64,000 nt of DNA from Phycisphaeraceae bacterium (GTDB lineage Bacteria > Planctomycetota > Phycisphaerae > Phycisphaerales > Phycisphaeraceae): the NCBI GenBank assembly GCA_963674705.1, contig OY771506.1, positions 3,904,001 through 3,968,000 on the forward strand. The letters are read 5' to 3'. Shown here in pieces: positions 46,346 to 49,528 of this stretch. Both the position numbers and the translations under genes were made by a program. Under the pieces are notes generated by a model, which was not told the origin of the DNA, did not search any database, and was given only the letters and a program-made list of their open reading frames with translations. Every line of letters starts with the position of its first letter. The stretch's first letter is position 1.

Positions 46346-46852
46346 TTACTTGGCTTGCGCAGATGTCAGATTAATAGGCTCGCCACATTCTGGGCAGGTT
46401 GCGGCATCGCTTCTACCTCGTAAGTTATAGCCACAGCTATAACAATCACCAAGCCTGGGTTTCCTGGTCAATCTAAAAGCGATGTGAGTCAGAGGTAAGG
46501 CTATGAGCAATAGCAGTAGGATCCAAGATGGAAACGTGGTTTCCCACTCATATTGATCCGCTTCCCAGTCAAAATGCCACCAACCTGATTTGTATCCATC
46601 TGCCATCGTTTCTGAAATTGGCCTGATGTAAAAGCATCCTGTTGGTATGCGTCCCAGATCGCTGTCCACAACCGTTACCAAGCCAGGTGACATTTCAAGC
46701 ATGTGGTAGCCAATCGGTGACTTGTGTATGAAAATATTCAGTTGATAGAAGTAGGACGTGACCCAAAGTGCGAAGCAAACGGCTATACATAAACTGCTAA
46801 TACATAAAGCTACTGAGCGCCCTCGGCCATGTTCCTTCAGCACCCGTCTCAT
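46346..46852 (-). CDS. 2-TM membrane protein with C-terminal Zn ribbon (array member 3)
   Basis: ATGA overlap with the upstream stop; CYSCGYNLRG...CPECGEPI. Confidence 0.8.
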   Translation of the reverse strand: MRRVLKEHGRGRSVALCISSLCIAVCFALWVTSYFYQLNIFIHKSPIGYHMLEMSPGLVTVVDSDLGRIPTGCFYIRPISETMADGYKSGWWHFDWEADQYEWETTFPSWILLLLLIALPLTHIAFRLTRKPRLGDCYSCGYNLRGRSDAATCPECGEPINLTSAQAK

Positions 46853-47307
46853 ATCACTTCCCCGCACTCCGGGCAGGTTGTAGACTCTTTGCTGCCACGC
46901 AGGTCGTAGCCGCATTCGTTGCAACAGCCAGTATTAATTGTATATGACCGTCTGTAAAGCAAAGCAAAAATCGGCCAGATACTTGATACCACCACGAAAA
47001 TCCACAGCGGAATAACATTGATCAAAACCCCGCCCGCATCTATGAAATCAAACCATCCGAAGACTCTTGATGGCGTAAGCCCTGCGATACTGAAGTGGAA
47101 GTGCATGCTCTTGTATGTCTCTCCGGCATTCGCAAAAACAACACACAGTTGCCCATGATTTAATTCAATCGCGATGCCCGGATAGTAGATCACGGTGTAC
47201 GAAACCAGAGATAACAGCCATATCCCGTGAACGAATACTGCAAACAGTGACGTTATGATGAGAACGCACCGAAAGACCGATCCGGTACTTCTCGGCTGAT
47301 ATCTCAT
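46849..47307 (-). CDS. 2-TM membrane protein with C-terminal Zn ribbon (array member 2)
   Basis: ATGA overlap; CNECGYDLRG...CPECGEVI. Confidence 0.8.
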   Translation of the reverse strand: MRYQPRSTGSVFRCVLIITSLFAVFVHGIWLLSLVSYTVIYYPGIAIELNHGQLCVVFANAGETYKSMHFHFSIAGLTPSRVFGWFDFIDAGGVLINVIPLWIFVVVSSIWPIFALLYRRSYTINTGCCNECGYDLRGSKESTTCPECGEVI

Positions 47308-47630
47308 ATCACCTCGCCACACTCCGGGCACTCCAGCTTCGACAAGCCCTTGAGGATATAGCCGCACTGCCTGCAGCGGCATTCGCGATCGTACTTCGGC
47401 CGCAGTATGAATATGAATGCGAGCACGCTCGTCGCACAGGTCAGGGCGGTCATGGGGATGCCGATCAGGCCTATTCTTATCAACTGCATCCACCAGAATC
47501 CCGGAGGCAGAGGGGCGTTCGCGACCTTGAGTTGGATAAACATAAGCAGATTACTGAACGCGACGCCCACCACCGTGCCGCATGCCACCGCGATCAGGAA
47601 CCGGCCGACGCCGCGTCTGGTTATCTGCAT
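47304..47630 (-). CDS. 2-TM membrane protein with C-terminal Zn ribbon (array member 1)
   Basis: GGAG RBS; CRQCGYILKG...CPECGEVI. Confidence 0.8.
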   Translation of the reverse strand: MQITRRGVGRFLIAVACGTVVGVAFSNLLMFIQLKVANAPLPPGFWWMQLIRIGLIGIPMTALTCATSVLAFIFILRPKYDRECRCRQCGYILKGLSKLECPECGEVI

Positions 47631-47764
47631 GTCGCTCCAATCAACAGGAATAGATCATATCGTCTGCCTAAGACATACCCGGATGCCCATACGTAGCCTC
47701 CGGCATGAGGTTCATCATGATTCCGGCGATTCAAGCCGTCAAGATATGTGGTCCAGACCACCCA

Positions 47765-47794
47765 TTGCATACCCCCGGGCCAATCGCCTATACT
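47765..47794 (+). promoter_or_regulatory. Sigma-70 promoter for the tRNA
   Basis: TTGCAT-N18-TATACT. Confidence 0.6.
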
Positions 47795-47807
47795 TTCCTA
47801 ATTGGCC

Positions 47808-47891
47808 GGCCGCGTGCCCGAGTGGACTAAGGGGGCTGATTGCAAATCAGCTAGGCTTCGCCTGTCGTGGGTTCGAATCCCACCGCGGCCT
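47808..47891 (+). tRNA. tRNA-Cys(GCA) with long variable arm; CCA not encoded
   Basis: Acceptor GGCCGCG/CGCGGCC plus U73; anticodon arm GCTGA-TTGCAAA-TCAGC; V region TAGGCTTCGCCTGTC; T arm GTGGG-TTCGAAT-CCCAC. Confidence 0.93.
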
Positions 47892-47895
47892 TTTC

Positions 47896-47923
47896 GACCC
47901 GCTTTCATAGCGGGTCTTTTTTT
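47896..47923 (+). terminator. Intrinsic terminator after the tRNA
   Basis: GACCCGCT-TTCAT-AGCGGGTC followed by T7. Confidence 0.9.
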
Positions 47924-47932
47924 GTCGTGTGT

Positions 47933-49528
47933 CTACTCGCCCGCCAGCCTCATGAGTTCGGTTTCGACCGCGTCAAACATGTAGCCGATCATCAGGGCCC
48001 GGCGGTTCGGGCGGATCATGCCGGCGTAGACATCTTCATATTCGGCGTGCAGTGCCTGCATGTCTTTCAGGATGGCGTTGACTCGGTTGCGATCTGCCTC
48101 GGGAGAGTAGCCATCCGTACGGCTTTGCAGGATCACCTCGACTGCCTGGGCGCGGTTAATGAGGTTGCGTGCCGCCAATTCCCAAAGCCTGAGTACCTCA
48201 TCACCTTTCGTCGTGTCCTGGCGAAGCGTCCGGAATAGTTCAAGGCTTTGCGTATAGTCCTGGGCACACTTCTGCGCCCGCATGATTTCGATGTCTAATC
48301 TGTCTGCCTCGATCATTTTTACGATGGCATTTTCGATATGGTCCTTACTGACAGGCAAGCAGGCCTTATCGTATCCGAGCGAGCGCGAATTGCTGAATTG
48401 GCAAAGGCCGGCCAGCCCATCGGCGGCTTTCCAGAATCGGTCGTCCTGTAAGCCATAGGCATCATTCACATACCACGCTCGGAAGTCGCTCAATGACTTG
48501 CCGGGGTTGCGCGACTGGTAGCCGAAGGCGGCGATCTGGGCGTGCTGCAATTCCCAGGGATGCAGGTGCATAGACCAGCTTGTCAGCACCGAGCCGCTTA
48601 ACCCGGGAGTCTGCATGCCTTTTTCGGCTGAGTCCCATGCGTTCCACAGGTGCAGTTCATGACGTGGTGCAAAGACATTGTCGCCGAAGCTGCTCGACCC
48701 GGGGCAGGTGACGGTGGCAAATCCCTTGTCAGCCAGGAAGTCAGCCGAGTAGAACGTCTCGGGGTCGACACCCGGCGCGTCGCCGTTGGGGAACAGGTAC
48801 TTGCCGAAGAGTTCCAGGGTTTCAGGGTTGAGTTGATCCCGCGTGCGTAAGCCGCGGTCGTCGCCCCAAATAAACACCTTGCCGTTGCCTCGCCAGATGT
48901 CGTACATCCAGTCGAACAGCATGATGTCCCGCGACAGTTCATCGATCGCCTCGTGGTGGTGCAGCACCATGTCTGCCCAGATGATCGGCGTGACGCCTCG
49001 CTCAAGCAATGGCTCTGAGACCGCGTTGATGTGCCGCATGAATATCTGCGACACGTTCAGGCCTTCCTTGTTCCATTCGCTTTGCTGGATGAAGTCGAGC
49101 TCCCGTGCTTCGTCGGCGCCGATATGAAAGTACTTGACATCCCCAAACAGGTCCATGTACTCGGCGATCCAGGCGTGGATAAGCGGGACCACCTCCGGGT
49201 GGAACGGGTTGTACTGCGAGGTATTCTCCGGATTGGCACGCAGGTGCTTGTATTTGTCGTATTGAAGCAGGTATTCGACATGCCCCAGCGTCTGGAGCAG
49301 CGGGATGTGTTCAAGCCCGAGCCCACGCGCATGTTCCAGAACCTCACGGAATTCTTCTTTGCTTAACGCATCGGGCTGGCTCGCTTCTGGTGCGGTCTCC
49401 CATACGACACTGTCCTCCATCTCCCAGACGATCGTGTTGTAGCCCATGCCCGCGAGTTCGGTCAGCCAGGCCTTGAGGTAGTCGGCCTTGTATAAGGCCA
49501 TGTTCATGTCGATGTGGAAACCAATCAT
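47933..49528 (-). CDS. GH20-family glycoside hydrolase (hexosaminidase-like), no signal peptide
   Basis: GFHID, IPLLQTLGH.EY, FHIGADE, IIWADM and DWMY. Confidence 0.85.
   Translation of the reverse strand: MIGFHIDMNMALYKADYLKAWLTELAGMGYNTIVWEMEDSVVWETAPEASQPDALSKEEFREVLEHARGLGLEHIPLLQTLGHVEYLLQYDKYKHLRANPENTSQYNPFHPEVVPLIHAWIAEYMDLFGDVKYFHIGADEARELDFIQQSEWNKEGLNVSQIFMRHINAVSEPLLERGVTPIIWADMVLHHHEAIDELSRDIMLFDWMYDIWRGNGKVFIWGDDRGLRTRDQLNPETLELFGKYLFPNGDAPGVDPETFYSADFLADKGFATVTCPGSSSFGDNVFAPRHELHLWNAWDSAEKGMQTPGLSGSVLTSWSMHLHPWELQHAQIAAFGYQSRNPGKSLSDFRAWYVNDAYGLQDDRFWKAADGLAGLCQFSNSRSLGYDKACLPVSKDHIENAIVKMIEADRLDIEIMRAQKCAQDYTQSLELFRTLRQDTTKGDEVLRLWELAARNLINRAQAVEVILQSRTDGYSPEADRNRVNAILKDMQALHAEYEDVYAGMIRPNRRALMIGYMFDAVETELMRLAGE

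Follow-up and report, generated by a model that had tools for sequence, protein, structure and literature searches.

The window, by which we mean the whole 64,000-nt stretch of DNA that was analysed, contains a single tRNA gene, on whose position and strand ARAGORN and Rfam agree (Table 1). ARAGORN calls it tRNA-Cys(GCA), and Rfam RF00005 matches it over the full model with 56.5 bits and an insertion in the variable region. On the opposite strand the gene is preceded by three tandem ORFs with alike C-x2-C-G-Y...C-P-E-C-G zinc-ribbon tails, all without a Pfam match; similar ORFs adjoin the tRNA gene in genus relatives. A glycoside hydrolase gene converges on the gene from the other side.

Table 1. 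Features at and around the tRNA-Cys gene, in window coordinates
Feature	Position	Strand	Evidence
three tandem ORFs (192, 214 and 108 aa)	46346..47630	-	
weak -35-like hexamer TTGCAT, 3/6 match, 18 nt before the -10	47765..47770	+	sequence; under scan threshold
-10-like hexamer TATACT, 13 nt before the tRNA	47789..47794	+	sequence; similar hexamers upstream in genus relatives
tRNA-Cys(GCA), 84 nt, 7/5 cloverleaf, CCA not encoded	47808..47891	+	ARAGORN, Rfam, folding
anticodon GCA	47842..47844	+	sequence, ARAGORN; same in contigs of 3 studies
15-nt variable region, Tyr-type register	47852..47866	+	sequence, folding, register analysis
discriminator U73	47891..47891	+	sequence; U in 77/77 distinct long-armed genes
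intrinsic-terminator-like hairpin (8 bp; 47896-47916) and T run	47896..47924	+	terminator scan, 0.3 expected
GH20-family glycoside hydrolase gene, oriented toward the tRNA terminator	47933..49528	-	

An extra hairpin arm in bacterial tRNAs is the textbook preserve of leucine, serine and tyrosine tRNAs. The window tRNA has a 7-bp acceptor stem, a 5-bp T-stem and a 3-bp D-stem with G13/A22, and its sequence provides G1-C72, G15-C48 and G26/U44. Its variable region consists of U44, a 4-bp stem, a 3-nt loop and then G, U and C48, and a U44-G wobble can lengthen the stem. Folding for minimum energy yields a cloverleaf that includes the variable-arm stem (z -2.49; of 200 shuffled sequences, 3 are as stable). 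At 15 nt the variable region lies outside the 4-5 nt of class I and has the length (at least 10 nt) and the stem-loop of class II. The anticodon and U73 are those of tRNA-Cys, and the GUA anticodon and A73 of bacterial tRNA-Tyr are absent. An earlier note on this DNA had described an 84-nt gene with a 7/5 fold, GCA and U73, the Cys identity elements on a class II shape with a Tyr-type arm; ARAGORN, Rfam, the sequence itself, folding and the register analysis below bear out each of these points.

That note had also allowed that reads might show GTA. Contigs of four runs from three studies span the gene, and the best contig of each shows no difference in the tRNA, although one of the four runs, X1, may be the source of the window DNA. 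Because the contigs from three studies all read GCA and two relatives (G004 and G009) carry the identical 84 nt, a sequencing error at the anticodon is ruled out. One contig of run X3 aligns to 47600-47894 and then, about 1.65 kb further on, to 47879-48100, and both run X6 and G004 diverge directly after the tRNA gene. This gives the 3' end of the gene (47879-47894) the look of an insertion site bearing a short duplication, the arm not included; exact searches with 16-25 nt for a 3' piece of the gene displaced to another part of the genome found none.

The earlier note credited the gene with its own promoter and terminator. The terminator was recovered by the scan; the consensus promoter scan called no promoter for the window tRNA, in which the -35 matches at just 3 of 6 positions, and what stands is a putative -10 hexamer. 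Such hexamers occur no more than 60 nt upstream of 18 of the 48 non-array tRNA calls of the genome, compared with 3.6% of random 60-mers.

ARAGORN reports 79 tRNA genes in this Phycisphaeraceae genome, including normal tRNA-Tyr and tRNA-Sec; a second tRNA-SeC call (C1:708446) was dismissed as unlike a tRNA. No tRNA-Cys other than the window gene, a member of the dispersed housekeeping set, lies outside a tRNA array. A second, short-armed tRNA-Cys sits inside a 30-gene array at C1:622-635 kb, so that both genes the earlier note had proposed to look for, a class I tRNA-Cys and a normal tRNA-Tyr, are present. This array (G000:C1:622407-634804, minus strand) holds short-armed tRNA-Cys, tRNA-Leu(CAG) and tRNA-Leu(CAA), plus tRNA-Ile(UAU). 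The array tRNA-Cys could share the decoding work in this genome. A loose pattern, its rows judged by eye, was run on five single-contig relatives; in all five the long-armed gene is the sole tRNA-Cys-like match, and it must therefore serve UGU and UGC there.

Altered decoding of UGY, which the earlier note considered conceivable, is not what codon use indicates. In columns of RpoC and the RpoB C-terminus conserved in at least 90% of short-armed genomes, UGY codons occupy cysteine columns in 414 of 418 cases in 35 long-arm genomes and in 416 of 423 in 36 short-arm genomes, a test on two proteins that detects reassignment and not low-level mischarging. UGY is used at 1 of 831 tyrosine and 0 of 1151 serine positions. 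Judged by these columns, UGU and UGC are read as cysteine and reassignment is excluded.

The adapted CysRS suggested by the same note found no support either. One CysRS exceeds the cut-off in this genome, a protein of 486 aa that matches solved CysRS structures; the Pfam scan found its catalytic domain and no extra domain, and CysRS lengths overlap between long- and short-arm genomes. Across 45 CysRS from the order, 18 from long-arm and 27 from short-arm genomes after two incomplete sequences were left out, no column is linked to the arm: the best is equalled by 49 of 200 label shuffles, which ignore kinship, and the comparison would miss an old change common to the whole order. In one of the order's genomes, G050, cysS is interrupted in the assembly (L464, G050:C52:115366-116951; two frames, one TGA).

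To place the descent of the tRNA body we compared 65 core positions, excluding the anticodon, the variable region and base 73, across 77 distinct long-armed genes, a set without L162, an array gene from outside Phycisphaerales. In this core the window gene is 6 differences away from the closest short tRNA-Cys found outside the order and 11 away from the closest of 33 tRNA-Tyr. Scored against short-armed tRNA-Cys from outside the order, the core profile is Cys-like for 75 of the 77 genes, and the nearest neighbour is a tRNA-Cys for 74 and a tRNA-Tyr for 3. On this comparison the body descends from short-armed tRNA-Cys, not from tRNA-Tyr.

These results bear directly on the alloacceptor shift put forward in the earlier note, by which a duplicated tRNA-Tyr would have acquired GCA for GUA and U73 for A73 and replaced the old tRNA-Cys, the short forms then representing arm loss. 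A general resemblance to tRNA-Tyr (the 3-bp D-stem, G13, the arm geometry) and the three genes with a tRNA-Tyr as nearest neighbour speak for such a shift. However, short-armed tRNA-Cys from other orders of Phycisphaerae have this same D-stem and also share the acceptor stem, anticodon arm and T-arm, and at the diagnostic positions 3, 32 and 70 long-armed genes follow tRNA-Cys in 84, 100 and 84% of cases. Because the core groups with tRNA-Cys and the Tyr-looking D-stem occurs in the short tRNA-Cys of other orders, a whole-gene shift is unsupported; the core comparison appears largely to refute it, and we regard it as highly improbable. A tRNA-Tyr source for the arm alone may still apply. Some long-armed genes have a Tyr-like G3-C70, and because of these and the three nearest neighbours, exchange with tRNA-Tyr may occur. 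We had also considered C10-G25/G13 in the D-stem as a Tyr-derived mark that would date the arm to the root of the order, and dropped it on finding the same D-stem in short-armed tRNA-Cys of other orders.

The arm itself is a structured element. Phycisphaerales tRNA-Cys arms are 12-18 nt long, and 40 of the 45 distinct ones form at least 2 Watson-Crick pairs in the Tyr register (offset 2, with one base before the stem and three after it). Pairing averages 3.1 bp, against a mean of 0.39 for shuffled arms and 0.69 in the best of 500 shuffles, and G-C, A-U and U-A replace one another at the same arm pair. Because the arm is kept with such compensatory changes, it is not fully neutral once present. 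In the Ser register (offset 0) none of the 45 forms 3 bp. As controls, 37 of 37 tRNA-Tyr fall at offset 2, 15 of 17 tRNA-Leu at offset 1 and 6 of 12 tRNA-Ser at offset 0, with none of the latter at offset 2; the four non-array tRNA-Ser of the genome have 6-8-bp stems at offset 0. Phage tRNA-Cys are at offset 2 in 45 of 98 cases.

The register shared with all 37 tRNA-Tyr arms raises the question of whether the arm was copied from tRNA-Tyr into tRNA-Cys by recombination between similar flanks, once or repeatedly. One of the 45 arms equals a Phycisphaerae tRNA-Tyr arm and 7 more lie within 2 nt of one, the two genes stand in tandem in G032, and the two-state model described below favours gains and losses together. 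Yet the Tyr register arises unaided when any hairpin takes the place of the second base in the ancestral 5-nt loop, GNRA-capped 3-bp stems span a small sequence space, Cys and Tyr arms of the same genome do not match (by eye, in the 14 genomes with both), and no gain is seen outside the order, where tRNA-Tyr is equally similar. We hold this chimeric origin to be a tentative possibility of some weight, somewhat short of probable; it is compatible with an ordinary tRNA-Cys function. In the tandem of G032 (L292, G032:C24:127664-127851) a short-armed tRNA-Cys lies directly upstream of the tRNA-Tyr at a spacing of 30 nt.

The earlier note also offered a lineage-specific form of tRNA-Cys, and the survey of relatives agrees with it. 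A pattern run over 151 Phycisphaerales genomes matched 150; among the 142 for which the housekeeping gene was listed, 51 have the long and 91 the short form. By family, again among matches listed, the long arm is found in 32 of 42 genomes of the window's own family, 17 of 41 in f2 (including one, G123, that is unpublished), 1 of 41 in f3, 0 of 11 in f4, 0 of 6 in f5 and 1 of 1 in f6. In Phycisphaerae outside the order, tRNA-Cys was matched in 60 of 65 genomes with no long arm among the 60. A phylum-wide sample outside the order gave tRNA-Cys-like rows in 97 of 133 genomes, 34 having no match and 2 chance rows only, and by eye none of the 97 is long-armed; one genome, G236, is in both samples. 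Within the phylum, the long arm is thus confined to the order Phycisphaerales among the genomes sampled.

We placed the arm state on a FastTree phylogeny of RpoC and the RpoB C-terminus from 71 genomes (35 long, 36 short), comprising G000 and 70 of 80 searched, with 10 omitted for split or missing genes; the sample is hand-chosen and enriched for short-armed members of the window's own family. At least 17 changes are required, a number that 3 of 1000 label shuffles also reach; a single gain entails 21 losses, and gains alone 23 events. A two-state model that ignores the many short-armed outgroups gives lnL -46.3 for gains and losses, -51.9 for a near-single gain and -58.3 for gains only. Of ten pairs of long- and short-armed sisters fetched, five (G156/G052, G122/G050, G062/G047, G117/G105 and G128/G158) have common flanking proteins on one or both sides, and the other five have none in common at the cut-off used. 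The tRNA-Cys genes of G156 and G052 are identical outside the variable region. The gene switches in place, repeatedly, between armed and unarmed states.

Such a patchy distribution might also be produced by phages or tRNA arrays, if a long-armed gene from these sources had spread among Phycisphaerales by gene replacement. Viral contigs often carry long-armed tRNA-Cys (the 119 matches listed include 111 of 80-93 nt), and one phage copy, L061, resembles the Phycisphaerales type. However, long- and short-armed sister genes occupy the same locus and share clade-specific body bases, nearly all phage copies among the matches listed have unrelated bodies, and L061 is as easily a copy derived from a host. 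We consider a phage source unlikely. The cultured Enterobacter phage PG7 has an annotated tRNA-Cys whose arm, 13 nt long, is likewise at the Tyr register. Like the viral scan, a scan of GTDB species selects for long arms and so yields no frequencies. The 119 matches it listed comprise 67 long-armed genes of the Phycisphaerales type, 21 long-armed tRNA-Cys unrelated to these, 17 of them situated among at least 4 tRNAs, and 31 that were dropped (24 other, mostly archaeal intron-containing, and 7 non-tRNA). In one record, from Halobacteriovorax marinus, a tRNA-Cys of 82 nt whose variable region spans 13 nt stands alone, outside any tRNA cluster (L207, ~1490-1570), and may be an independent housekeeping long-armed tRNA-Cys. 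Seven others (L155, L165, L187, L196, L217, L226 and L241) form a recurring long-armed family in tRNA clusters, mostly in Burkholderiales-type records, with C1-G72, a deviation from the usual first pair of CysRS substrates.

Taken together, these observations indicate that the window gene is very probably an ordinary housekeeping tRNA-Cys with an extra arm, charged by the single ordinary CysRS and reading UGU and UGC. Class I synthetases bind tRNA away from the variable-loop side, and the orientation of the arm separates Ser, Leu and Tyr tRNAs. CysRS would read the anticodon and U73 and tolerate the arm, and C35 and U73 would keep off TyrRS and LeuRS. The shortness of the arm (2-5 bp) and its placement in the Tyr rather than the Ser register likely exclude SerRS. 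PMC9976931 names GCA and U73 as major CysRS determinants and A73 and U35 as those for tyrosine, and describes serine identity as resting on the arm. As to history, the arm may be a nearly neutral add-on that first arose within the order, either as a hairpin put in for the base that follows U44 in the 5-nt loop or as a segment copied from tRNA-Tyr; since then it would have undergone many losses and possibly also regains or lateral transfer.

It could be argued instead that SerRS, attracted by the long arm and U73, or TyrRS charges this tRNA part-time, resulting in ambiguous UGY decoding or in a route from serine to cysteine on the tRNA. PMC5389517 describes the combination of a long arm with G73 or U73 as a signature for SerRS, and selA is present in the genome, where selA and selB are single and both stand beside tRNA-Sec. 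However, the arm is short and outside the Ser register, CysRS is present, neither SepRS nor SepCysS was found over the cut-off in the genome, and the codon counts given above keep UGY at cysteine columns. Part-time charging is accordingly very unlikely in our view, and we give equally little credence to its extension, that some UGY codons receive serine or tyrosine, for example under cysteine shortage, with the ambiguity switched by gains and losses of the arm.

The window tRNA shares GCA, U73, G1-C72, the 7/5 cloverleaf and a 3-bp D-stem with the canonical class I tRNA-Cys of E. coli and other Phycisphaerae, and its body is nearly identical to that of short-armed orthologues, some of them at the same locus. 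What sets the long-armed form apart is a stemmed arm of 12-18 nt in place of a 4-5-nt loop, and the window tRNA has G15-C48 where that of E. coli has G15-G48 (PMC9976931). Bacterial tRNA-Tyr is similar in arm length (13-14 nt is typical), its 3-bp GNRA-type stem and its register; long-armed tRNA-Cys differs from it in C35, U32, U73 and mostly C3-G70.

A further known counterpart is the selC* tRNA-Cys of Mukai et al. (PMC5389517), likewise natural, bacterial and long-armed with U73 and GCA, and shown to be cysteinylated. However, selC* is a tRNA-Sec-like extra gene with an 8/4 fold, often accompanied by selB* and cysS* (PMC5389517), whereas the window tRNA is a 7/5 housekeeping copy in a genome with single selB and cysS over the cut-off; the supplement of that paper has no match to Phycisphaer- or Planctomyc-. 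Nematode nev-tRNAs also combine a long arm with a class I anticodon, yet those described are minor, Leu-derived and mischarged with leucine (PMC3333845, PMC4033280), and the window tRNA is a Cys-derived main decoder with no sign of recoding. In the literature searched, with subscription journals and tRNA databases outside its scope, a bacterial tRNA-Cys combining a 7/5 fold with a long arm was nowhere described; tRNA databases surely carry such genes annotated as plain tRNA-Cys.

We thus regard the gene as real and conserved, at odds with the class division of the textbooks, and most likely ordinary in what it does. Within genera, an essential tRNA-Cys alternates between the class I and class II shapes, and no accompanying change is visible in its synthetase. 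Natural pairs such as G156/G052 make the arm's cost or benefit directly testable, along with the response of CysRS, SerRS and TyrRS to it, and they bear on the possible gain or loss of the arm in bacterial tRNA-Tyr itself. Isotype calls based on length or models can mislabel long-armed tRNA-Cys, a warning for annotation, and a natural class II Cys scaffold is on offer.

The mirror case, again a bacterial tRNA changing class, is the type I tRNA-Leu(CAA) of Streptomyces coelicolor, in which the arm was lost and LeuRS needed an adapted domain (PMC6614811). By contrast, the tRNA-Cys of Phycisphaerales would have gained an arm, and no arm-linked change in CysRS was found. A mirror anomaly is also present in the window's own genome, whose housekeeping tRNA-Leu(UAA) is short-armed at 73 nt (G000:C1:4149863-4149935, minus strand); the same gene is short in 10 of 13 genomes of the family and in one f5 genome, and long in the order's other matches.
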